Source: Candidatus Thorarchaeota archaeon (GTDB lineage: Archaea; Asgardarchaeota; Thorarchaeia; Thorarchaeales; Thorarchaeaceae). Taken from it: DNA of 24,501 bases. The position numbers were made by a program, and so were the translations under genes. The notes below the pieces were generated by a model. It did no database searches and was not told the DNA's origin. It worked only from the letters and a program-made list of their open reading frames with translations. Of this stretch, positions 1,743 through 18,835 are shown piece after piece (the stretch's first letter is position 1; the number at the start of each line of letters is the position of its first letter). The stretch is taken from assembly GCA_048882485.1 (NCBI GenBank), contig JBHLRP010000049.1, positions 1 through 24,501 on the forward strand, in the 5' to 3' direction.

Positions 1743-2384
1743 TTGAACTTGACCATAGGAAATGCCGAGTCCCAAGGAGTTGTTCAGATTCTTAGTCAGG
1801 CTTCGGGTCTGATGAAGAAATCAAGATTCCTTGAAGCTGCGAATGCATTGGAAGATGCTCTGGCAAAATACCCTACCAACAAGGAAATTCTGCAGCAGCT
1901 TGTTGTCTGCAATATTGAGCTAAAAAGACCTCAGAGTGCGCTATACATGCTAGACAGGATTACAAAAAGTGCTCCCGGTGAACTATCCGCTTGGTCAGAC
2001 AAGGGCTTCTTGCACCTGCTCCTAAATGAGAACCAAGAGGGGATTGAAGCTCTTACGAAAAGCCTTGAATTGGACTCACGAAATAGTCATGTGTGGCAAC
2101 TGCTCGGTCTCGCACTCATGGGAGAAGAAAAGTGGGCAGAGGGACTCGACGCCTTCGAGCGTTCGTTGCTTTTGGATCCTAACTCAGCTATCACTTGGTA
2201 CAACCGTGCAGTGTGTTTCTTCTTTCTGGAATACTTCCAGGAAGCGCTCGCTTCCGTGGAGCAGGCGTTCTCACTTGATCCAGACCTCAAAGCATTGGCC
2301 GAAGAATGGGTGGCCATCTTGCAGGACGCGGCAGATGAGCTGGGCATTGATTACGTGGATGATTTCGAAGCTCAAGCTAGCTAG
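1743..2384 (+). CDS. Tetratricopeptide repeat protein (~5 TPRs) with acidic C-terminus
   Basis: Repeated 34-aa units such as AWSDKGFLHLLL..EGIEALTKSLELD, VWQLLGLALM..EGLDAFERSLLLDP and TWYNRAVCFF..EALASVEQAFSLDP; TTG start preceded by GGGGG. Confidence 0.88.
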   Translation: MNLTIGNAESQGVVQILSQASGLMKKSRFLEAANALEDALAKYPTNKEILQQLVVCNIELKRPQSALYMLDRITKSAPGELSAWSDKGFLHLLLNENQEGIEALTKSLELDSRNSHVWQLLGLALMGEEKWAEGLDAFERSLLLDPNSAITWYNRAVCFFFLEYFQEALASVEQAFSLDPDLKALAEEWVAILQDAADELGIDYVDDFEAQAS

Positions 2385-4335
2385 TGTTTTCATTCGTTGT
2401 CGCTTTAGCTTTTTTCTTCCTAGTTGATTTTCGTCGCTTCTTTGGCTTGGGAGGTTCAATTCCATCTATTAGCTCCTGGATGGTCTTTTGTTGGTCTTTC
2501 ATCTTGAACTTCTCAGCTGACTCAAGCGCCTGCCTCAATGCTCCCTGAAGACGCTCTGACTCAATCTTCTGCTCCTCTGGGTCCGTCATTTCAGCAATAG
2601 CGGCTTTGCGTTTTGGGAGTACTCGTAGGAAGCCCTCGATAGCCGCCATGGCTTCCTCTTTGCTGACAAGCTCATCCATTGGATCGGTTTCAGTTGCGTC
2701 GATAATCCGGCAGATTTGCGAGTATACTCGTCTGTGTTCTTCAAGAGCATCACTGAGAATTGACTCCACCTCACTTCCGGGCTCTGCTTGCTTTAGTTTA
2801 TCACGTATCTTCGCCATAGCATCCTCAAGGAATGCTTTTCGCTCATTCAGACTAGTCTTCTTTCTCTCCATCCAACGCCATTCATTTGTGATTCCATGAG
2901 TCAGAGTCAATGCTTGATTGACCGTTTCTCTGTATTCATTGACGTTTGCCATTGCTTCCTTCAATTCGGCCTCCAAGGTGTCAGCAACATCAGTTAGCTG
3001 GTAACTCAGAATATCACCGGCCTGTGCATCGGACAGGACGCGACTCTCTTTGATAGCTCTAGCTGTTTCATCCCAAAGCTTGTCGATCACATCATCTTGG
3101 AGACGAACATGAGTACCCGGCTCAACCTGTGCAGATATCTGCCTGATCCGCTCAGTTAGTGTCCCAAGCTCTTGAATCTTGGACTTTACGAGAGAACGAC
3201 CAAGTCGTTCATTCAACTCCTCCGTTAATTGTTGACGCTCCTCTGGCACTTCCAGCAATGCATGTGTATTATCTATCAAATATTGAAGTGCTTTCTCGTA
3301 GGAGGCAACTGCTTCTTGATGATTTCCCTCATCGAAGTATCCATCTCCTTGTCTCTGAAATACCAGCACAGATTCTAAGACATCATAGGGGGAGGTTCTA
3401 AGAAGGCTGACTCCGTATCGCGACTCGCTTGACATACTGAGATCGAGCGGAACCTCGCCAATAGTCAAGGAGAGAACGAGGATTCCATCAGATCCCACTG
3501 CATACACGTGAAGTTTGTCTGCATCGATGTATCCGATTTTATAATTTTCAATTAGGAATCGGCCCATCTCATTTCCTCTAATTAGGTCCCAGACTGTGAT
3601 GAGCCCTGAGTTCATTACGGCGACTAGATAGGAGCTGTTTGACCACATAGAAACAACGGGATTCGAGGACTTATCTTGAAGCGTGCGAATAAGCTGCCAT
3701 TCAACTCGATCCCATATGCCTATCTCGCCAGATTCAGTCCCTATAATCACAAATTCGGAATTGCCAACAAAAACAGTAGGACGAATCTTCTTATCGAGTC
3801 TTGCTAGCTCGGTAGGCGCCTTATTTGGTTCATGAAGCCAAGCTCTTGGCTCTTCCTTCCGACTTCCAGTTAGGATGACTCTATCGTCTGACCATAGCGT
3901 CGATATATCAGACTTATGAAGCTGCCAGCTTGAAGTCTCGTGAGTGTCCTTCTTGATAGAAACTAACCTTCCATCACGTGCGCCGACATAGAAGCTGTCA
4001 CCTTGGAGGGTGGATGTGATTGCATGATATGTCAGCTCAAACCATCCAGTCATGCCCCATGTTCCTTTCTTCCAGACATATACGCGGCGTTCGCATGTTG
4101 CGTACACTCTTTCTTCATCGACATGAACTACAAGAGGCTCGCTACTAGTTTCCCCAAGCTCCGCTACTAGTTGCCAGTCTTCCTTTGACCAGACTCTTAC
4201 CTTCAGGTCTCTACAGGCAGCGTATAGAAACCTCTCATCATGAACAATATGAACTGCGTCCGCCTCTAGGACTGTAATGATTTCATGACCAAGTGGTAAA
4301 GCCTCACCTGTGCTGCCTCCTGCAGAGATGGGCAT
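2377..4335 (-). CDS. WD40 beta-propeller + TPR/MIT-like helical bundle + coiled-coil protein with basic C-terminal tail
   Basis: Seven ~38-42-aa blades in aa ~25-295 (KVRVWS, RVYVWK, GARDGRL, GEIGIWD, GLITVWD). TPR/MIT-like segment GDGYFDEGNHQEAVASYEKALQYL at aa ~318-388, followed by a heptad-rich helical region and the tail PKPKKRRKSTRKKKAK. Confidence 0.8.
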   Translation of the reverse strand: MPISAGGSTGEALPLGHEIITVLEADAVHIVHDERFLYAACRDLKVRVWSKEDWQLVAELGETSSEPLVVHVDEERVYATCERRVYVWKKGTWGMTGWFELTYHAITSTLQGDSFYVGARDGRLVSIKKDTHETSSWQLHKSDISTLWSDDRVILTGSRKEEPRAWLHEPNKAPTELARLDKKIRPTVFVGNSEFVIIGTESGEIGIWDRVEWQLIRTLQDKSSNPVVSMWSNSSYLVAVMNSGLITVWDLIRGNEMGRFLIENYKIGYIDADKLHVYAVGSDGILVLSLTIGEVPLDLSMSSESRYGVSLLRTSPYDVLESVLVFQRQGDGYFDEGNHQEAVASYEKALQYLIDNTHALLEVPEERQQLTEELNERLGRSLVKSKIQELGTLTERIRQISAQVEPGTHVRLQDDVIDKLWDETARAIKESRVLSDAQAGDILSYQLTDVADTLEAELKEAMANVNEYRETVNQALTLTHGITNEWRWMERKKTSLNERKAFLEDAMAKIRDKLKQAEPGSEVESILSDALEEHRRVYSQICRIIDATETDPMDELVSKEEAMAAIEGFLRVLPKRKAAIAEMTDPEEQKIESERLQGALRQALESAEKFKMKDQQKTIQELIDGIEPPKPKKRRKSTRKKKAKATTNENTS

Positions 4336-4393: not shown

Positions 4394-4599
4394 CTCAATT
4401 TAGGACCGATTTGCGCATTCTGGAGTCCACGCGGGATTTGTTGAAAAGGAGTTTTTAGTTTTATTGAGCAATGCATTCACGAATGAGTTGGCCAACTTAC
4501 AGGTGATCGATTTTTCGACGTCTAGTTTGCAAACGGATAATCTCTGACGCATGATAGACTTTCAGGCTCTCGATAATCATCATAGCACACTTCTTCCAT

Positions 4600-5175
4600 C
4601 TACGCATCTCCTTCAGCCTCCAAGTTCTGCATCAGGTCAAGCTCTTGCAGGTGGCCGGCGAGTATCCTTGCCGCCTCGGGAACTTGCTTCTCGCTTTTGG
4701 CGCCCACGATGACAAACTTTCCGGAGCCAAATATCAGGACCACGTTCTTTGGGTCCCTCATCCGATAGATCAGGCCCGGGAACTGCTCAGGTTCATACAT
4801 GCTGTTCTTGAGTGTCATGACAGCCCTCTCAAGGTCTACGGACCTACCGAGACTGCCACAGCCCACGACATTCTGTATTGTGATGGTGGGGCTGCCAGCC
4901 ATCCTGTAGCCGGCCTCATTGAGGCTCTTCACAATCTTGCCGACCGCCTTCTTGACATCCTTCTCACTCTTGGCCCCGGTGCACACCATATTCCCGGTAT
5001 TGAAGATCAGTGTAGCTGTCTTGGGCTTCTTGAGACGGTATACCAGACCCGGGAAATCTTCTGGCGCATATTGAACTTCGGGCATCCCTGCTGCTATTTC
5101 TTCCAGGTCCAGCTTCTGGTCTAGAACGACTGAAGCTACAATGTTCTCAATCTTGGTCGTGATCTTTCTCGGCGT
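4600..5175 (-). CDS. tbp: TATA-box binding protein (start codon position reads ACG; possible near-cognate start or inactivated copy)
   Basis: Two TBP repeats: KIENIVASVVLDQKLDL..YAPEDFPGLVYRLKKPKTATLIFNTGNMVCTGAKS and IQNVVGC..YEPEQFPGLIYRMRDPKNVVLIFGSGKFVIVGAKS. The essential NIVAS strand lies upstream of the ORF-track ATG (5085). The frame is open to 5319 with no ATG/GTG/TTG, and ACG at 5175-5173 follows SD-like GAGAGTG. Confidence 0.9.
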   Translation of the reverse strand, partial: TPRKITTKIENIVASVVLDQKLDLEEIAAGMPEVQYAPEDFPGLVYRLKKPKTATLIFNTGNMVCTGAKSEKDVKKAVGKIVKSLNEAGYRMAGSPTITIQNVVGCGSLGRSVDLERAVMTLKNSMYEPEQFPGLIYRMRDPKNVVLIFGSGKFVIVGAKSEKQVPEAARILAGHLQELDLMQNLEAEGDA

Positions 5176-5427
5176 AATGACACTCTCTGGTTTTTCTACA
5201 CGTGAGAGAGATACAGGCTCTCCATATGCTTCTTTGCATTCACTCGCGCATGGATGGTTTCGCGGGGCGGAATAATTCGAAGGATGCTGATGTGAATCAT
5301 AGTTTTTTGAATCTTCACGCTATTTGGCCCCCTACTTTCCACGTGCAGGTCGATAACATAGACGCATCGAGACTTCAGTTAAATGTTCGTGCCCAGAAAG
5401 TGAAGATGGCAAAAGGAGTGGAAGTCA

Positions 5428-5844
5428 TTGTCAAAGAGTGAAGAAAAGAAGCTGCTTCTAGTGGAACAGAAGTTCATTGAATATTATCAAGAAGTCAGTA
5501 AGTCATCATCTCCCCCGAGAATTAGTAGCGATCTTGACAAGATGCTCGATGAGGATAAAGAGATCGTTGAGATATTCAATGAATGGGGAATGGATTACGC
5601 TGACATGATACACAAATGGTTCGATGAGAACAGCTTTGAGAACTCAATGAGCCCTATCAAGGCGAATCTCGTTGCTGAGTACATGATTAGTGGACCACTC
5701 AGTTTTGCTGGAGGATATGAGAATTATGTGCAGAAGACATTCCTTGTCAATGGACAGAAACATGGTGTTCTCGCATTCCTTATACCAAATGAAGATCCAA
5801 AACTTGCTGCACTGCACATACTCTTCACCAAGGAGGAAGAATGA
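5428..5844 (+). CDS. Hypothetical protein, 138 aa
   Basis: TTG start after SD-like GGAGTGG; protein-like composition (helical N-half, beta-rich C-half); no family recognised. Confidence 0.65.
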   Translation: MSKSEEKKLLLVEQKFIEYYQEVSKSSSPPRISSDLDKMLDEDKEIVEIFNEWGMDYADMIHKWFDENSFENSMSPIKANLVAEYMISGPLSFAGGYENYVQKTFLVNGQKHGVLAFLIPNEDPKLAALHILFTKEEE

Positions 5845-6094
5845 AGACACAGTAATCGCATAGCAGAGAAATTTGAATTTCTCAAGAAGTGTCATCCTGA
5901 ACTGAAGACCTTCGCTCTGGAATCCTGGAATGTTCAGAGCTTGGATGCTCCGCCACAGCCCTGTTTCAGTCATGACTCTGTCATTGGATATCCTATTTAA
6001 ACGACACAGAGTTTTTAGAAAATGTCAGCCCCAGAGGACTCCTTTTTATGCGTTCATTCTTAATAAGTTCGTCTGGGCGAGCTTTTTGCCATAG

Positions 6095-6101
6095 TATAAA
6101 A
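6095..6101 (+). promoter_or_regulatory. Putative TATA box of the small membrane-protein gene
   Basis: TATAAAA at 6095-6101, then GGGGT SD-like motif (6126-6130) and TTG at 6139. Confidence 0.45.
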
Positions 6102-6138
6102 GAGCACTCCAATTGAAGGTAATTTGGGGTAGTTTCTA

Positions 6139-6360
6139 TTGGAAAAGATCAAGTTGCCAAGCCAATCCTCAGAAAGAATCCTCTACATTGTTTTGGGGCT
6201 AGTAATTGCAGCAATCTTCTTTCAGGATGCATTCCGCCTAGTATAGGAAACTAGCCAGACTGTTTCTGATGCTGCAACGAGAGTGCTTTTTGTGGGAGTG
6301 GCGCTAACATTGCTTTGCTTTCTGATGCGAAGAAGACGCACTGGATATTCCACCTATTGA
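6139..6360 (+). pseudogene. Small two-TM membrane protein interrupted by in-frame TAG (pseudogene or amber read-through)
   Basis: Hand translation: MEKIKLPSQSSERILYIVLGLVIAAIFFQDAFRLV*(TAG 6244-6246)ETSQTVSDAATRVLFVGVALTLLCFLMRRRRTGYSTY*. A hydrophobic helix lies on each side of the stop, with a positive-inside RRRR after TM2. Absent from the ORF track. Confidence 0.6.
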
Positions 6361-6755
6361 CAAGCTCCCGCACACACCCCAGTCCCCCGACAACTCAGCT
6401 CCCCATCTTTGGCACTGCATACAGTTTCACTACGGATCTGGCTTTAGACCTGGTACTGCAGTACTCACCACGCCCCTCGAGAACCTCAATATGTCCAGCA
6501 TCCGCTCCAGTTCCACCAGCCTTCCGGCCTCCCTTGCCTGTGCCCTGGTCTCCACCTCCGGACTGTTCAGCATCACCCTCACGTCAGGCACTCCCTCACC
6601 TGCCCTGGCCTCCATCACCACCGCCATGTGGGGCTCGTGCCTGAACTCCGGACTGCTATGTATACTCTTGCCGTCACTCTCTGCCAGGAACAGCTTCGCG
6701 TTCACTGCAACGAACACCTCTCCCTCCCCGGAGGTGGCAAGTCTGCCTGAAAAAA
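6361..6755 (-). pseudogene. Clipped high-GC foreign fragment: probable 3' part of an unknown gene (stop at 6430) plus the decayed start of a zinc-ribbon gene (ATG 6420)
   Basis: About 59% GC by hand count (6361-6720). The minus frame has strong G/C-ending codons (GAG, GTG, AGG, CTG) and runs from a TAA at the 6756-6767 palindrome to TAG at 6430. It is followed by MQCQRWGAELSGDWGVCGSL, resembling CxxCGxxL-x5-CxxC with two Cys lost. Confidence 0.45.
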
Positions 6756-6767
6756 GGCCTTAAGGCC
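6756..6767. repeat. Perfect 12-bp palindrome GGCCTTAAGGCC
   Basis: Seen directly; located at the right edge of the high-GC fragment, about 125 nt upstream of the tubulin-like operon. Confidence 0.5.
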
Positions 6768-6892
6768 GTTAAGATAGCACGTGTTTGTATGTCTCGAGGA
6801 GTCAGTAGGCCATTCATTCATATGTCAAAGTCCACTGATAACCATAGCTCGAAAAATAGAAGATACCAATCCCTAGGCAGGAGGTAGTCATT

Positions 6893-9580
6893 TTGGATAG
6901 TCACGCATGGAGACGCGAAATCGATAAGGTCGCTGAAATTAAAGGAATGTTGATTCAGCTCAACAAATCCCTTGAAGACCAGACTGACAGAACCGTGCGC
7001 CATTTATATGACACACTGGCGAAGTTCGCAAAGTTCGAGAGTGATGCAGGTTCAGCAGGTTTCATGAAAAAGAGAAAGTTAGTATCACAGATGGAAACGA
7101 CCAAAAATGCTCTCGAAGAGGACTTCATGAGAGCAGTCAGGGATTTCTCAGATTTACTCCGCAAGGAGCATCGAGAAACCGCAGCGGTTCTTCCAAAGCT
7201 TCAAGCACAGAAACCCAACGAGGCGAAGGCAATCAGCGTGTTGACTTTTCCATCAACTGGAACAGGGGATGCCAAAGACCTAGAAACTCTCCTGACATTT
7301 GCTAAGAATTTCTCAAAGCTCACAACAGGTGTCCATCATGACCTTGCTAGGGAAGTCAAAGAATTTCTTGACGAGAGCAAACGAATCGTTGAAACCTATG
7401 AGAGGCATATTACCATAGATCGAGGCGAAGTTGCTTCCACTTTGTCATATGAAGATGTAGCCCATCTGCCAGTAGGGGACATCATCGGGCTATCAGACAA
7501 ACTTAAAGCTGAACGGACATATCTCGATGGGCGAAAAGACGAAGTAAGTAAGATGATTGGAACCGCATTGATAACAGAAGTAGAGTCATTGCAGGCGTCC
7601 GTTGAAACAGCCTCCAGATTGGGTCTAGAACTGCCAATGGACTTTGGCCAGCAACTCAGAATTATTGCAAGGGATTCATCGAAGACAACTAATCTGACTT
7701 CACTCATTGCTTTAGAGAATCAGCTTCACTCTGCAAAGGTAAAGATGTCAAATCTTCTCAGGGACAGGATTATCAATATGAAGCACGAAGTTACTTCCAA
7801 TATAGTCGAAGGCGGCATTCCTGTCACTGCAGCAATCATCCCTGAAGCACCTATCGTGGGAGTGGAATCAGAGGATGTTGCCAGTCAATTATCAGGCTAT
7901 CAAAAGATGGTTGAATGGGAATCTCAAGTGAAGATATCCCTGAAAGACCATGTAGAAGAGGTTTTGGAGGAAATTGAAAAAGCCACTGATGCCCCAGATG
8001 ATACCGGTATCAAAGATGCCGTTGAGGTCAGAAAGTGGATTGCTGATGCCAAAAAGAGCTTGAAGAAGCAAGAGATAGACGCCATGGTTGCAACCTACGT
8101 GAAAGCAAATGGTATGCGTGAAGAATACCGAAAGAACCTGACAGATACCATTCGAAGCTACATAACTAGATTCAATGAACTTGCCACTTCAGCAGATCGA
8201 GTTTTGGATTACGCCCAGCTTAGCAAAAAAGCGCCGAAAGTCGAAGACCTTGAGGGAGGCATAGTCTATCTGCTCCAATCATTAGCAAGTCTTCGCGTAG
8301 CTGTTGAAGATGGAGTTGCTACATTCCGAGATGCTTGCAAGCAAGAGATCGAAGTCATTGTTGAGGACCTTCAGACGATCAAGCCTGCATATGCAGAGAT
8401 CTTTATGCCAATCATTACCGAGCTTGACGAAGGATCCATGAGAATAGAGAAACTGAACGACTTCGGAGAAATCAGGTCTGAGATGAGGACAATCAAGGAC
8501 ACAATTCTTGTCAAGGCGCAAGAGTCATTGGAAAATCTTCGTTACAGGCTTGGGGTCAAGATTCGACTTGCTGCTGCAAAGCTTATGGGAGCTGGTGTTG
8601 AGATTCCCAAGGAGGCCCAAGAAGCTATTGGTGAACTCAATAGTATAGGTGTGGCCGCTGACACAGTATTCAGTCTACCTGCGATTGCTCGCAAAATGGT
8701 TGAGCTATATGAGCACAAGATAAGCGCCGAAGTTATTGAGTCACTGAAAGAAGAGGTAGCCAAACTCCAGAAATCATTCGATCAGGCACACGCGATTGGA
8801 GTTCCAGTAGACAATGAGTTGAAACTGCTGAAGAAGTTGCGGGATACTCCTCCAGAGGAACTCGAATCCGCTGCAGACTCATTTGACCAGCTCATGGGTC
8901 TAACCACATCACCAGATGTGCACAAGAAGATCAAGACTCGTGCAGAAGAAGCGTACCGCCAGATTCAAGGCGCCGTATCAATCTTTGAGGAACAAGGCAT
9001 GTCTGACTTTGTTGGTCGTCTAAAGGGACTGCTGGAACAGGTTCCAGATCAACTCGCCAAGGACTCAAAGCACATCTTCGAAGTGCTTGATGTGTGTTTG
9101 ACATTAGCAAACATCCAAGATGAAATGTTGCAGGTCATAAAGGGAATCGCGACCAAGGATGGAGAAGCACATCAAGAAGAGATTAAGAAGCAGTCGGAGT
9201 ATTACTCAACTATCGAAGCAGTCTACAATAAGCATCCCAAGGACTTCAGTAAGCTCATATTCCCACTCCAGAAGCTCAAGAAGCTTGAGACTGACCTAGC
9301 TGAGGCCAAAGCACTTGAGGATGCTATTGAGAGCTTTAACGAACTCAAGGGACTTCGATTGGAATGGGTCGAGAAAGCGGCAAAGATGGATGACTGGCAC
9401 AAGTCCATGAAGGTCTTTATGACAGGTTTCAGTCCATCGGGCACATCCGACCAACGTGAAACATTCCTTACTGATGCAATCAAGAAGGTCAAGGAAACAT
9501 ACAGCAGAGAGGACATCAGTTCCTATCTGACTTGGGCGATTCGGGAGATTGCCGATAGAATGGTAGAGAAGAGAGGTTAG
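6893..9580 (+). CDS. Large all-alpha protein built of ~65-aa helical repeats (rod-like); first gene of tubulin-like operon
   Basis: 895-aa ORF; TTG start after GGAGGT SD; E/K/L/A-rich amphipathic helices punctuated by G-hydrophobic turns at aa ~244, 308, 372, 568, 636, 702; no Walker motif, no TM segment. Confidence 0.85.
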   Translation: MDSHAWRREIDKVAEIKGMLIQLNKSLEDQTDRTVRHLYDTLAKFAKFESDAGSAGFMKKRKLVSQMETTKNALEEDFMRAVRDFSDLLRKEHRETAAVLPKLQAQKPNEAKAISVLTFPSTGTGDAKDLETLLTFAKNFSKLTTGVHHDLAREVKEFLDESKRIVETYERHITIDRGEVASTLSYEDVAHLPVGDIIGLSDKLKAERTYLDGRKDEVSKMIGTALITEVESLQASVETASRLGLELPMDFGQQLRIIARDSSKTTNLTSLIALENQLHSAKVKMSNLLRDRIINMKHEVTSNIVEGGIPVTAAIIPEAPIVGVESEDVASQLSGYQKMVEWESQVKISLKDHVEEVLEEIEKATDAPDDTGIKDAVEVRKWIADAKKSLKKQEIDAMVATYVKANGMREEYRKNLTDTIRSYITRFNELATSADRVLDYAQLSKKAPKVEDLEGGIVYLLQSLASLRVAVEDGVATFRDACKQEIEVIVEDLQTIKPAYAEIFMPIITELDEGSMRIEKLNDFGEIRSEMRTIKDTILVKAQESLENLRYRLGVKIRLAAAKLMGAGVEIPKEAQEAIGELNSIGVAADTVFSLPAIARKMVELYEHKISAEVIESLKEEVAKLQKSFDQAHAIGVPVDNELKLLKKLRDTPPEELESAADSFDQLMGLTTSPDVHKKIKTRAEEAYRQIQGAVSIFEEQGMSDFVGRLKGLLEQVPDQLAKDSKHIFEVLDVCLTLANIQDEMLQVIKGIATKDGEAHQEEIKKQSEYYSTIEAVYNKHPKDFSKLIFPLQKLKKLETDLAEAKALEDAIESFNELKGLRLEWVEKAAKMDDWHKSMKVFMTGFSPSGTSDQRETFLTDAIKKVKETYSREDISSYLTWAIREIADRMVEKRG

Positions 9581-9599
9581 CTGAAAGGGGACACAAACA

Positions 9600-10985
9600 A
9601 TGCTACGAGGAACATCGAGTGATGATGATCTGACAAAGGCCGCGGAGGTCTTTGCAATTGGGATTGGTGAGTGTGGGAGCAATATTGTAGGCTCCTATCT
9701 GAAAGCCAGTGAGGATAGGAAACTGCCTTCCAGAGTCAGAGGCTATTTGCTCATGAACACTGATAGAGCAGACCTTACCAAGGTGAGACAGAAGTATGGT
9801 ATCCCCAAGGAGCATACAATGCTCTATGGTGCATCAGAAATAGGCGTTGGTGGAAGATTCATGGACGGATATAATGCCGTCCTCGAGTCGAAGGACATCA
9901 TCTTCGAACAGCTCAAAGACCTAGGATTCGAAGGAGTTTCGGGATTCTGCATCTTTACAAGCCTTGGTGGTGGTACAGGTTGCGGCGGAACTCCCGCCAT
10001 AATCGAACTGCTAAAGCAGAGATTCCAAGAAGAAGAAGGGCGGCGAATCTTCGTTTACGTTGTAGGCATTTTGCCATTCGAAGGACAGTCGAGTGAGGCT
10101 CTGAACTCGATCTGGGCTGTATCCCGTCTTCTCAGGGCACAGCTCCAAGAACGCGGAGCAGACCTAACAATTCTCCTAAGCAACAGAACTATGCTAAAGC
10201 GAATCCTCCAATCAAGAGGAGCTGACAGTGTCGACTATCTTCAACGTGAGCTAGAGATTGATATTGCCAATGTCAACCAGATTGAAAGCATGGTACCATC
10301 CACTCTGGATGAGGGCGGCGAACTTGAGGCGCGAACTGAACAGGCATTTGTTGAGTTGGTGAACCCACTAGCATTAGATGTTGTTGAGGCAATGCTCTCG
10401 CCAGGAGTATATGAACCTCATAAGGATGTGTTCCCGACAACAGACCTTGCGGACTATGCAAGAAAGCTTGACCCTGTCGTTGTTCCAGCACTCTACACAG
10501 ATGTTGGATTGATACCGGATGCAGGCAGCATGCCAAAGCAACTCAAGACAATGATGGATTTTGCAGTGAAGGAATGCTCCTATGCTGATGTAGGTGCAGA
10601 GCCAAATGCAGAGAGTGTATACTATGTTTTCTCGGGCCCAAGGCACATCTCCAAAGCTGAATATGGAATGCACCTTAAGGAAGCACTCAATGGATTCATT
10701 GCACCTGGCGCTGCCATCACTCCATGCTATGTTCAATATAACATCAAAGATCCTACTACTAACCTTCTTGTTCTTCTTGGTCTGCCAAAGATTCCAGAGC
10801 TTGTACAAATCATCAACGAGGCAACACAACTCGTTAATCTTCACAGCGGTTCTTCACCACTCAAGCAGGGGTGGTTCATGCGAGCCAAAGGAACAAGTAG
10901 AAAGGAGCTTGTCGATGCCATTGCTGACTTCCGTGAGCTGTTCTCCTACTACATGACACCTGGAGATGCAGCTGAACCGATGTAG
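9600..10985 (+). CDS. Tubulin/FtsZ superfamily GTPase, divergent tubulin-like type
   Basis: T1 IGIGECGSNI, NTD, T3 GVGGRFMDG, signature SLGGGTGCGG (9960-9989), ILPF, T7-like TTDLADY, and C-terminal helices resembling tubulin H11/H12. Confidence 0.93.
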   Translation: MLRGTSSDDDLTKAAEVFAIGIGECGSNIVGSYLKASEDRKLPSRVRGYLLMNTDRADLTKVRQKYGIPKEHTMLYGASEIGVGGRFMDGYNAVLESKDIIFEQLKDLGFEGVSGFCIFTSLGGGTGCGGTPAIIELLKQRFQEEEGRRIFVYVVGILPFEGQSSEALNSIWAVSRLLRAQLQERGADLTILLSNRTMLKRILQSRGADSVDYLQRELEIDIANVNQIESMVPSTLDEGGELEARTEQAFVELVNPLALDVVEAMLSPGVYEPHKDVFPTTDLADYARKLDPVVVPALYTDVGLIPDAGSMPKQLKTMMDFAVKECSYADVGAEPNAESVYYVFSGPRHISKAEYGMHLKEALNGFIAPGAAITPCYVQYNIKDPTTNLLVLLGLPKIPELVQIINEATQLVNLHSGSSPLKQGWFMRAKGTSRKELVDAIADFRELFSYYMTPGDAAEPM

Positions 10986-11004
10986 ATGATGGGATGGTGC
11001 GGAC

Positions 11005-12093
11005 TTGACTGAAGGAACCAACATTGCAGAGGACCTTCTTGACAGAGTCCTCTTGATAGTGACTTTGAATTCAACTCTCCTTCATTTTCTTCTAAGCACC
11101 CAAGTAGACGGCACAGTTGATCCAGACAGAGTAGATTCATTGATTCAAGGACTCCTGAGAACTCGTCGATGGATGGAGGAAGCAACTGAACTGAAGAACA
11201 TAACTCCATCAACACAGAACATCATTAGTCTAATCGTAAAGAGACTCTCTCAAATTGAGAGCCTATTGCCAAAGCTTTCAGCTAGAGCAAAAGAAGCTGA
11301 GGCAAAGGGAGCTCCAGCTGCAGAAATAATCTCCCTATTGGATGATGGCGCTAAAGTAACGACGACAACAGCTGCAAAGACCTCATCAACAGCAACCGCA
11401 ACAAAGACAACGGCAGCACAGGAATCCGGCGTGATTCCTCTCATAGGGGAAGAGGAGGAACAGCCCCCAGAGCCTTATCGAAAGGTGGAAGTTGAAAATG
11501 ACGAATGGGGTCTCATAGGGCAGATGCAGAGGATGATTACACAATACAGCAAGAGATGCCATGTCCTTCTGCCGACATTCTGGGTTGATACTCTTCGGGA
11601 ACTCCACAAGTATCGGTCTGACTCGCCATTCTATGGAGATGTCATTGAAATCCCAGGTCGAGTTCTTGTTAAGATTGTGAAGGGGCTTCTCACGGAAGCT
11701 CCGGGAGCAAGACTTCTTCAAGATTTATCCAAAAAGCGCCCCCAAGAGAATTATCTGAATCCTTCTGAGATGGAGCGGATTGAACGCGCTGTGGCCAAGT
11801 ACTTTTCCGGCGTAGTGGATGTTCTTACTGAGAGCGAATTCAATGTGGATGAGAAGATTGGAGAGGCGCAAGCAAGTTTTGATTCATTTGGCTGGGGAGG
11901 CCCAGAGCTAGAGAAACGAATCATCAAGAGGATAAATCAGCAGGTCCAGGAAGCAATTCAGAATGCAGAATCTGCTAGTGACCCTCCAAGACAGGTAATC
12001 TATTCTGAGATTGCCAAACTCCTGACGAAACTTCAGCATGCAATCCTTGCAGAGCCTAGATTGAGAGAAATTCTAGCTCAAATGAAACCTTGA
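11005..12093 (+). CDS. Hypothetical helical two-domain protein with Thr/Ala-rich linker; third gene of tubulin-like operon
   Basis: 362-aa ORF starting 19 nt after the tubulin-like stop; helical aa 1-110, linker TTTTAAKTSSTATATKTTAA..EEEEQPPEP, helical C-domain. Confidence 0.8.
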   Translation: MTEGTNIAEDLLDRVLLIVTLNSTLLHFLLSTQVDGTVDPDRVDSLIQGLLRTRRWMEEATELKNITPSTQNIISLIVKRLSQIESLLPKLSARAKEAEAKGAPAAEIISLLDDGAKVTTTTAAKTSSTATATKTTAAQESGVIPLIGEEEEQPPEPYRKVEVENDEWGLIGQMQRMITQYSKRCHVLLPTFWVDTLRELHKYRSDSPFYGDVIEIPGRVLVKIVKGLLTEAPGARLLQDLSKKRPQENYLNPSEMERIERAVAKYFSGVVDVLTESEFNVDEKIGEAQASFDSFGWGGPELEKRIIKRINQQVQEAIQNAESASDPPRQVIYSEIAKLLTKLQHAILAEPRLREILAQMKP

Positions 12094-12168
12094 GACATTG
12101 CATGTCCAACAGCATATTTGATATAAGGAGCAACTTCAAAGGCGACTCAAGACAGTTGAGGGAAGTCC

Positions 12169-15983: not shown

Positions 15984-16691
15984 ATGACGATAGCTATCGT
16001 CAAGTTTCCTGGGACAAATAGCGAGAAAGACGTGCTTCGAGCACTTTCATTGATACCAGGTGCAAATCCATATGTAGCCTCGAGCCAGAAAGGGCCAGAA
16101 GTCCTGCAGGAGGCGGATGCTGTTGTGATCCCAAGCGGAGCCTCAATTGACGCGTATGTCAGTGTGAGCGCTGAGAAGTGGATTGACAATGTAGAAGACG
16201 CAATTCAGGGCATTGCAGAATCAGGCAAGCCAATCTTGGGAATTGGAAATGGCGTGCAGATGTTGACAAGATTTGGTTTGCTTCCAGGTCAGCTTCGTCT
16301 GAATGAAAATGGGAGATTCATCTGTAAATGGGTATATCTTAGGGTGTGTGAGGACTCCACCATCTTCACTGAAGGTCTTGAAGGACTAGTGATTCGAATT
16401 CCGATAGCGAACTCCCACGGGAGATTTCACTTCAAAAAGAAGGAGCTCGAGAGAATCAATGAAACCGGAGGAGTTGCGTTCAGATACTGCAATCAAGAGG
16501 GAGAAGTTGTTCCTGAAGCCAATCCAAGTGGGTCAATAGAGAATATTGCCGGAGTGAAAAATGACAGCGGAAATGTGTTAGGAATTATCCCTCATCCGGA
16601 GAGGGCAACTAGAGATGAACTAACATCTTGTGACGGTCTGATTCTTCTAGAGAGCTTTGTTCGGTCTATAAAGGCAAGGAGTCTTTCATGA
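15984..16691 (+). CDS. purQ: PurQ-like glutamine amidotransferase homolog lacking the nucleophilic Cys
   Basis: FPGTNSE, GLLPG, RFICKWV, NPSGS..IAG and PHPER match PurQ, but LGICNGFQ reads LGIGNGVQ and PGGFSYGDY reads PSGASIDAY. Confidence 0.85.
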   Translation: MTIAIVKFPGTNSEKDVLRALSLIPGANPYVASSQKGPEVLQEADAVVIPSGASIDAYVSVSAEKWIDNVEDAIQGIAESGKPILGIGNGVQMLTRFGLLPGQLRLNENGRFICKWVYLRVCEDSTIFTEGLEGLVIRIPIANSHGRFHFKKKELERINETGGVAFRYCNQEGEVVPEANPSGSIENIAGVKNDSGNVLGIIPHPERATRDELTSCDGLILLESFVRSIKARSLS

Positions 16692-18835
16692 TATCCAAGC
16701 AGGAGAGAGAGCAGCTAGCGCTGGCATTGGGACGAGAGCCAACAGAAACTGAGCTGGAAGTAGTTTCTATCCTTTGGTCCGAACGCAGGAGTTACAAAAG
16801 CAGCAAGCGTTGGTTCAGGGAGTTCAAGACGGAAGGTGACAATGTCGTATTGGGGCTAGGCAAAGGAGCAGGAATTGTCGACCTAGGAGATGATGTGTTT
16901 CTTGGTGTTGCAATGGAATCCAATAATCATCCAACGCAGGCAAATCCGTATATTGGATCTGCATTAGGAATTGCTGGCGTGATCAGTGATGTGATTGCTC
17001 ATGGCTGCAAGCCAATTGCGCTACTGAATTGCCTTAGATTTGGAGAACCTAGCATTCGGGAGAATGCCACTGCGCTAAAGGAAGCAGTAAGAGGAATTTC
17101 ACAATTCGCCAATAACATAGGGATCCCTATGATCGGAGGGGACACTGAGTTTGACGAATCATTTGAGAACAACAGTGTTTTGAATGTGGTCTGTGTCGGA
17201 ATAACGAGTCCAGGCAGTATGGTTATGAGTAGAGCTTCAACCCCTGGGCATCATCTAGTGCTCTTTGGAGCGAATACTCGAAGAGACCGCCTTATTGATT
17301 ATAGTGGATCCTCCGGAAAGGCAGGAGCAGCAGTTCCTGGGAATCCTCTCGCTGAACGGATAGTCATTGATTCACTTGACCAGCTTATTGATGGGAAGCT
17401 TCTGGTCGGGCTTGAAGATGTTGGTGGAGGCGGATTGGCACTTGCAGGAGCAAAACTTGCTGCAAGGGGGGAAACCGGGGTTGAGCTTCATGCGGACATG
17501 GTCCCAATTGATGATGAAGAAATGAGCACAGTCGAAATCATCACATCTGATTCGCAGAATCGAATGCTTGCTGTAGTTGCTCCCGAGAATTTGGAAAGAG
17601 TCCTATTAATACTTGGCTCCTACGATACCCCTCACGCGGTTATCGGTCAGGTGACCGACAAAGGACTCTACAATGTATATCACCATGGGGAACTGAAGGC
17701 AAGCCTACCAGCAGTTCTTTTAACTAGCGGATTCCCCGAACCAGATAGATTTGAGGAGTATCTTCCCGAGAGGACTGCATCTATCAGTTGGTTAGTAGCG
17801 CCAGAGGATCAAGCGCAGATGCTGCTATTGATGCTTTCCTCACCCAATATTGCTGACAGGTCGTGGATCTATAGTCAGTTCGACCAGCACATTCAAGCGA
17901 ACACCATTGTTGACATAGGAGACAACTCAGGCGTTATCGAACTTCCTAGAGGGAAGAGAATTGCACTAACCACATCATCAAACTCCTTCTGGAGCTATTT
18001 ACACCCCCAGATTGGAGCGGCGAATTCTGCTACACTTGCCCTAAGGAATCTAGTAGCATCAGGTGCAAAGCCCACCTTCATAGCGGATTGCATAAACTTT
18101 GGTAATCCCGAACGTCCCGAATCGTATGCGGAATTTGTTGAAGCAATAAAGGGCATAGGTAGTTTCTCGCACGATTTTGATATTCCTGTTATAACCGGTG
18201 GAGTTTCTCCCTATAACGAAAAGGTGATAGATGGCAAACACAAGAGGATTCATCTTACCCCCCAGATAATGATGGCAGGAGTTCTATTGCAGGGACATCT
18301 CCCCACTAGGAGAAGACTTTGTACACCGTGGGCGAACATCTTTCTTGTTGGCGAAACCCATCGAGAATTGAATGGATCTGAGCTACAACGAATCCAACTG
18401 GGGAAGGTTCAGGGACTTCCACCCGGATATCAACCCGCTGCCGAGAAATCCGCTATGGAAGCCATGCTATCTTCATTTGCCAAAGGGCTTGTGAGATCAT
18501 GCAACGATATTGGGCGGGGCGGCTTGGCTGTCGGTTTGATGAAGATGGCTCTTCGAGGAGATTTGGGATTCAGACTCGACCTCAGTGATGTTCCTGGATC
18601 CGCGAAAGGACTAACTGAGATTCTCTATTCAGAAACATCCGCTAGATATCTTGTCGAGGTGACTGAAACAAATCAGGATGAATTCTTGCACACAGTTGAG
18701 AAACATAGAGTTGCAGCCACTGAGCTAGGTTTGACCTTGAATGAACCTATAGCCAATTTTGGCGCTTTTAGCATCAATTTGAAAAAAGCCAGAGAAGCAT
18801 ACCTGAATGGGATAGCGAGAATTCTGAACAAGTAA
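16688..18835 (+). CDS. purL: Small-type PurL (FGAM synthetase II) homolog with substituted active-site histidines
   Basis: LGREPTETEL, SYKSS, LRFG, DCINFGNPE and PVITGGVS.YNE match small PurL; WSEHC reads WSERR and ESHNHP reads ESNNHP; ATGA overlap with purQ. Confidence 0.88.
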   Translation: MISKQEREQLALALGREPTETELEVVSILWSERRSYKSSKRWFREFKTEGDNVVLGLGKGAGIVDLGDDVFLGVAMESNNHPTQANPYIGSALGIAGVISDVIAHGCKPIALLNCLRFGEPSIRENATALKEAVRGISQFANNIGIPMIGGDTEFDESFENNSVLNVVCVGITSPGSMVMSRASTPGHHLVLFGANTRRDRLIDYSGSSGKAGAAVPGNPLAERIVIDSLDQLIDGKLLVGLEDVGGGGLALAGAKLAARGETGVELHADMVPIDDEEMSTVEIITSDSQNRMLAVVAPENLERVLLILGSYDTPHAVIGQVTDKGLYNVYHHGELKASLPAVLLTSGFPEPDRFEEYLPERTASISWLVAPEDQAQMLLLMLSSPNIADRSWIYSQFDQHIQANTIVDIGDNSGVIELPRGKRIALTTSSNSFWSYLHPQIGAANSATLALRNLVASGAKPTFIADCINFGNPERPESYAEFVEAIKGIGSFSHDFDIPVITGGVSPYNEKVIDGKHKRIHLTPQIMMAGVLLQGHLPTRRRLCTPWANIFLVGETHRELNGSELQRIQLGKVQGLPPGYQPAAEKSAMEAMLSSFAKGLVRSCNDIGRGGLAVGLMKMALRGDLGFRLDLSDVPGSAKGLTEILYSETSARYLVEVTETNQDEFLHTVEKHRVAATELGLTLNEPIANFGAFSINLKKAREAYLNGIARILNK

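Follow-up and report, generated by a model that had tools for sequence, protein, structure and literature searches.

Among the described members of the tubulin superfamily, those closest to the system reported here are the CetZ proteins and Asg.Tub, a CetZ-like clade to which Santana-Molina, del Saz-Navarro and Devos gave its name in 2023 (PMC9871819). The text of that article rests on four sequences, with a reference set of proteins from SMTZ1-83, AB_25, LC_3 and B3-JM-08; in the published tree, Asg.Tub falls outside canonical CetZ. The authors already remarked on unknown coiled-coil neighbours of Asg.Tub genes and described OdinTubulin as likewise flanked by two coiled-coil genes, and the text gives no definition of a conserved triplet, of partner families, of binding or of function. 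Of the characterised relatives, the nearest is CetZ1, which forms polymers with GTP and whose M-loop is important for cell shape (10.1101/2024.04.08.588506). Here we analysed a stretch of 24,501 nucleotides (the window; contig JBHLRP010000049.1) from a Candidatus Thorarchaeota archaeon of the class Thorarchaeia, with Thorarchaeia records as the nearest relatives of the locus. The analysis centres on three adjacent genes, for a rod protein (A), a GTPase (T) and a third, 362-residue protein (C):

6893-9580, + strand: A, the rod, 895 amino acids, with a TTG start and GGAGGT at 6880-6885; reading frame intact
9600-10985, + strand: T, the Asg.Tub GTPase, 461 amino acids; reading frame intact
11005-12093, + strand: C, a two-domain protein, 362 amino acids; reading frame intact

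On balance, we moderately favour the view that these genes encode a three-protein Asgard cytoskeletal module, apart from FtsZ1/2 and the true tubulins, in which the GTPase would form a side-decorated, cortex-tethered protofilament.

The GTPase and its conserved neighbours

T matches the Pfam family Tubulin (PF00091) with 74.2 bits against a cut-off of 33, and so do all 67 of its homologues, which bears out an earlier sequence-only reading of the middle gene as a tubulin/FtsZ-superfamily GTPase. Two assignments within the superfamily were ruled out. T is neither FtsZ1 nor FtsZ2, because it reaches 34 bits against the FtsZ equivalog TIGR00065 (cut-off 295), has no FtsZ_C match in the Pfam and NCBIfam searches and comes from a genome in which two FtsZ genes lie apart from it, on contigs other than its own. 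Nor is it a true tubulin of the AtubA/B, OdinTubulin or BtubA/B kind, since Tubulin_C (PF03953) was found neither in the source genome nor in its family (0/85), and T is single copy in the locus and in the source genome, with no tandem paralogue pair. Of 400 Asgard genomes, 8 have Tubulin_C, and all of these belong to families that lack T. The nearest solved structures in the PDB are those of CetZ (4b46, 3zid and 4b45), at a distant likeness in the N-terminal domain (profile E ~1e-13). T shares about 93% identity, counted by eye, with KXH77455.1 of SMTZ1-83 from the published set over the C-terminal half, and the LC_3 member P0112 is 51% identical to T over 97% of the length. Judged by sequence, T is a member of the published Asg.Tub clade, and the earlier impression that the GTPase fits nothing described has to be given up. 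The following segments of T can be placed:

9966-9986, + strand: T4 signature GGGTGCG (residues 123-129), its glycines unchanged across 67 homologues; Cys takes the Ser/Thr position
10437-10454, + strand: T7 catalytic loop TTDLAD (residues 280-285), both Asp kept, Thr in place of Asn; aligns with tubulin T7 in the published alignment
10500-10574, + strand: M-loop equivalent and H9 (residues 301-325), the predicted rod-binding side, placed through the published alignment
9765-9923, + strand: H2, H2-S3 loop, S3 and H3 (residues 56-108), the predicted C site, placed through motifs and the published alignment

Across the 67 homologues, T1, T4, T5, T6, N255, D282 and D285 are invariant; on sequence evidence, T keeps its GTP-binding loops and both T7 aspartates. 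It also carries some 40 inserted residues ahead of H7 and is highly conserved (72-100% within Thorarchaeia). With CetZ1 and CetZ2 of Haloferax it has in common a homopolymer-type catalytic loop and the standing of a non-division paralogue beside FtsZ1/2. Unlike CetZ, it has the long insertion before H7, fixed partners and an M-loop with a predicted part in binding another protein.

The A-T-C triplet is present in six Asgard classes, assigned from the source labels of the genomes: Thor-, Hermod-, Sif- (Borrarchaeum), Baldr-, Asgard- and Heimdallarchaeia (Hodarchaeales). A lies directly 5' of T in 108 of the 111 testable loci and C directly 3' of it in 104, the seven exceptions being second copies in Hodarchaeales; this adjacency is far beyond chance. 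For LC_3 and other Hodarchaeales, Borrarchaeum and Asgardarchaeia, homology of the flanking genes was confirmed by BLAST. T was found in 125 and C in 123 of 400 Asgard genomes, and the nine families concerned, out of 33, are the same for both. When only genomes with a completeness of 85% or more are counted, T is present in 83 of the 87 that belong to these nine families and in none of the 180 others, counts that are not independent tests, as the genomes are related by descent. In the main Hodarchaeales family, 20 of 22 genomes carry the module. FastTree trees of A, T and C give the same class-level groups. Because the outer neighbours change from class to class, it is the triplet that is the conserved unit, and it stands in a housekeeping chromosomal context, including the complete chromosomes CP070658 and CP070761. 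Two hits labelled Bathyarchaeota and Thermofilum sit in a Baldrarchaeia cluster at 90% identity and are probably mis-binned. The neighbourhood comparison thus upholds the proposal of a dedicated module whose flanking genes are co-conserved with the GTPase. Compared with the article that named it, the clade here spans six classes and has two fixed partners.

Several loci show other arrangements. A paralogous second rod and GTPase pair without C occurs in Hodarchaeales family f11 (L113-L119); in six loci it is preceded by a conserved gene for 311 amino acids, of no known family and with no detectable homology to C. C-side residues score 0.41 against 0.47 overall in second-copy T and 0.47 against 0.51 in first-copy T. 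In two Hodarchaeales genomes, large insertions lie between A and T (L105:7655-11263 and L109:5369-7690) and encode related large acidic proteins, with differing strands, and in G387 about 8 kb separates T from C. The C homologue at L125:7001-8809 has 602 amino acids, about 280 of them extra N-terminal residues, in an intact triplet with a rod of 1311 amino acids. At L076 the whole triplet stands in a MoCF/CDC48 context where L126 has C alone.

The partner proteins and the predicted complex

A and C were described beforehand as soluble, helical and of no recognised family. This agrees with their all-helical AlphaFold2 models and with the absence of any Pfam or NCBIfam match above cut-off for either protein; in neither does a 19-residue window exceed a hydropathy of 1.6, and both are acidic. 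The model of A is a chain of helical bundles with a predicted local distance difference test (pLDDT) score of 87.6 and a predicted template modelling (pTM) score of 0.41, a low value such as a long, flexible rod would be expected to give. Long helices recur every ~66 residues, with a degenerate unit of ~62-66 residues. The self-match probability of A is 75%, a slice-by-slice repeat search gave nothing significant, and periodicity in the sequence is weak, near 61-66 or double that in four lineages (z ~3), with z 7 at lag 125 in one. The rod is modular, and its homologues range from 870 to 1400 amino acids. Conservation concentrates in the C-terminal 120 residues and in a motif at the tip of an N-terminal hairpin:

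7058-7081, + strand: hydrophobic-basic motif GFMKKRKL (A residues 56-63), at the turn between helices 25-54 and 57-106
9392-9517, + strand: C-terminal patch of A (residues 834-875), a predicted GTPase-binding site that includes the invariant W835

In 69 of 81 A homologues, proteins with a median net charge of -27, no 10-residue window is more basic than the tip motif, which is a possible membrane (or nucleic acid) anchor.

C is modelled (AlphaFold2, pLDDT 84) as a three-helix bundle (residues 3-100), a disordered linker (105-143) and a conserved helical domain (145-362), and its family is small and closed, with 53 representatives. In searches that did not take in the C-terminal domains on their own, neither A nor C found a significant match in PDB sequences, Foldseek or the ESM Atlas, and VIA-align returned only generic helical bundles; on this evidence, neither protein is of a known family or fold. 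In VIA-align, A was paired with PRC1 (Z 6.5, root-mean-square deviation (rmsd) 20.8, 350 residues aligned), with EzrA (Z 6.1, rmsd 17.3, 201 aligned) and with a chain of the gamma-tubulin ring complex (76 residues, Z 6.4, rmsd 3.0). The PRC1 and EzrA alignments are analogies only, with Z at the level of any helical rod. PRC1, EzrA and the gamma-tubulin complex proteins (GCPs) resemble A by analogy, as long helical-bundle rods that bind tubulin-family proteins. They differ in that no sequence match exists and the fold scores are helical-rod background; EzrA has a transmembrane anchor and A has none. PRC1 and EzrA are linkers with spectrin-type three-helix repeats; the unit of A is ~62-66 residues. 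Nothing ties either partner by descent to eukaryotic proteins, and neither is shown homologous to any microtubule-associated protein.

The interaction of the partners with the GTPase, put forward earlier from the sequence, gained the backing of a prediction. A model of three chains (T 10-455, on which the score was taken as partner, A 594-895 and C 145-362) reached 0.64, compared with 0.10 for the best of three controls. In the benchmark, 58 of 80 solved complexes and 2 of 110 mismatched pairs reach the mark, a rough guide for a model with its own alignments and three chains. Model runs share at least 90% of contacts, with a pLDDT of at least 80 for T, and recall of a known complex is unlikely because A and C have no solved relative. 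Predicted contacts join A 834-875 to T 301-325 and, with an expected error below 8 Å, C 232-236, 297-311 and 361-362 to T 56-80 and 99-108, whereas the T4 and T7 loops have no predicted contact in the three-chain model. The A interface is more conserved than its domain (0.56 against 0.41, p ~0.003), as is that of C (p ~0.001), in which P233, G298, R305 and K361 are invariant. In microtubules, the M-loop/H9 and H2-S3/H3 regions are the sides that meet between protofilaments. The published alignment (PMC9871819) equates T 301-325 with the tubulin M-loop and H9; by motifs and this alignment, T 56-108 takes in H2, the H2-S3 loop and H3. The model thus supports binding of the A C-terminal domain to T on the M-loop/H9 side and, less certainly, of the C C-terminal domain on the opposite H2-S3/H3 side, with the head-to-tail polymerisation faces of T predicted to be free.

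Genomic surroundings of the operon

The spacing of the co-oriented genes is as read from the sequence at the outset: 19 nucleotides from A to T, 19 from T to C and 75 from C to acdA, which runs from 12169, with a TATA-like stretch ahead of it at 12117-12127. The triplet has a GC content of 44-49%, in line with the remaining window and host-like as proposed. An Rfam search gave no RNA match, and the signal in a bacterial promoter and terminator scan was at chance level. acdA had been called an unrelated gene. It is indeed a neighbour rather than part of the core, because it is missing after the triplet in Hermod and Hodarchaeales loci, but it is nonetheless a regular neighbour, found next on the 3' side in Borrarchaeum and in almost all Thorarchaeia. 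On the other side, a WD40 and TPR/MIT-like gene (2377-4335, - strand) is divergent from the operon and a TPR gene (1743-2384, + strand) is convergent; these neighbours are syntenic in most Thorarchaeia and not in other classes. Further along, at 15984-18835, lies a PurQ/PurL-like pair whose sequences appear to be without the usual catalytic motifs.

Two features of the upstream region lie outside the system:

4475-6843, no strand: insertion of 2.37 kb in the operon promoter, between the WD40 gene and A, with an extra TBP gene inside
4600-5190, - strand: the extra TBP gene inside the insertion; its conserved first strand lies 5' of the first ATG, so its start is non-standard or lost

The insertion is absent from the three nearest relatives (L001, L002 and L004), in which the region upstream of A is only ~200 nucleotides long and holds a TATA-like run ~45 nucleotides 5' of A; in the source genome, the insertion has replaced this run. 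In locus L005 the same site is occupied by a related insertion, also with an extra TBP gene and with an 8-nucleotide direct repeat at both ends, which suggests that the element arose by site-specific integration. No integrase was recognised in the 4475-6843 insertion, and its left end appears deleted in the source genome. Close copies of the inserted TBP gene (78-82% nucleotide identity) occur in G371, in two places, and in G351, and the source genome has another TBP gene on contig C64. The earlier statement that no mobility genes are nearby stands as to genes, but overlooked the insertion in the operon promoter. The module itself is resident, as had been supposed; in the source genome its promoter was hit by an inserted element, and the reading frames are intact.

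Mechanism, alternatives and implications

In the mechanism that we propose, T would assemble into dynamic single-type protofilaments. A and C would cover the T surfaces that microtubules use for tube closure and, because the partners sit on these surfaces, the filament would be decorated and unclosed, with no tube. The rod would act as a spacer of lineage-specific length, an estimated ~40 nm if spectrin-like, that ties the filament to the membrane via its hydrophobic-basic tip. C may be a flexible adaptor whose linker and three-helix bundle reach another component, and, by analogy with CetZ, the role would most likely lie in shaping the cell or organising its cortex. Filament formation and the scaffold, bundler or adaptor roles suggested at the outset are inferred. 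A physical complex of A, T and C is likely, and we regard it as equally probable that T forms a filament; the membrane tether and shape role are more tentative, being plausible at somewhat less than even chances.

GCPs bind the minus-end face. T could be imagined as a GTP-sensing subunit on the rod that forms no long dynamic filaments, like gamma-tubulin on its GCP scaffold: the rod, with ~900 amino acids of helical bundles and a predicted tubulin-binding end at its C-terminus, has a GCP-like layout, and T is very conserved, with Thr for the T7 Asn and the long insertion before H7. However, D282 and D285 are both invariant, the predicted contacts spare the head-to-tail faces, unlike those of GCPs, none of 24 rod homologues has a Pfam match, GCP and its GRIP domains included, and true tubulins occur in genomes outside the families that carry the module, so that we consider this unlikely. 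Partition systems offer another parallel, since in TubZ-TubR-TubY a filament GTPase has two co-encoded partners. A TubZ-type (type III) DNA segregation system acting on the chromosome, with DNA bound by C or by the conserved polybasic rod tip, would fit this resemblance, and TubZ is CetZ-related (PMC9871819). Unlike TubZ-TubR-tubC, though, the module belongs to the chromosomal core, among housekeeping genes, and not to a plasmid or phage. No small DNA-binding adaptor was recognised: no DNA-binding Pfam family appears in 74 C homologues, and fold searches gave no clear match. A and C are acidic, the relatives offer only the short upstream region described above, and the rod tip includes conserved hydrophobic residues; segregation is therefore quite unlikely.

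An accessory division module that works with FtsZ1/FtsZ2 through an EzrA-like rod would account for the weak, long alignments of A to EzrA and PRC1 and for a core gene where present, but those scores are no higher than for any helical rod, the two FtsZ genes lie on other contigs and a search of 180 near-complete Asgard genomes from other families did not find the module, which makes the division reading improbable. That A, T and C merely share a conserved neighbourhood and form no complex is very improbable: Thorarchaeia do hold long synteny here (TPR, WD40, acdA, idi) and a few triplet loci are interrupted or split, but the outer neighbours vary by class while the triplet is constant, presence patterns match, and the complex model far exceeds its controls.

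Several points count against the decorated, tethered protofilament that we favour. Blind-picked neighbouring genes pass the model test in 7 of 44 cases, and interface conservation is only partly independent of the model, as the same alignments were used. The C site on T is the weaker one, because the 25 lowest-error contacts are all between A and T; a control that kept C and T and swapped the rod scored 0.10, which leaves C-T binding without the rod unsupported, not disproved. The side-face mapping rests on the published alignment, our own profile alignment to AtubA and Odin tubulins being unreliable beyond the GTPase domain. Moreover, the basic tip of A fits nucleic-acid binding equally well, second copies of T in Hodarchaeales have no adjacent C gene, even if their genomes still encode C, and a lone C homologue lies by MoCF and CDC48 genes at L126:7001-8038, on a contig with no A or T.

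Of the GTPase clade, no more than the name was already known; the literature searched, which covered few subscription journals, does not describe the triplet, its range or its predicted side-binders, and the controlled complex model and its mapping are new here. Work on Asgard tubulins has centred on the rare true tubulins, present in ~1% of Asgard genomes (PMC13394414). AtubA/B, OdinTubulin and BtubA/B/C resemble the module in belonging to the tubulin superfamily and in having co-encoded partners, but none of the 8 of 400 genomes with true tubulins carries the module, which is found in about one third of Asgard genomes and in nearly every genome of nine families. Since all three proteins are soluble and have predicted sites, the existence of pre-eukaryotic side-binding and tethering partners of prokaryotic tubulin-family filaments becomes directly testable. 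Hodarchaeales, moreover, is an order with cultured strains (10.1101/2025.02.26.640444). It is conceivable, if a little short of an even bet, that the non-FtsZ tubulin-family system most widespread in Asgard archaea takes the form of a membrane-tethered protofilament bearing two dedicated side-binders of no known family, and that Hodarchaeales hold an independent filament-associated set. As the module is core in Hodarchaeales, the lineage put forward as nearest to eukaryotes would have carried filament-associated proteins of its own, which, if this is true, use the same side faces as microtubule tube closure.

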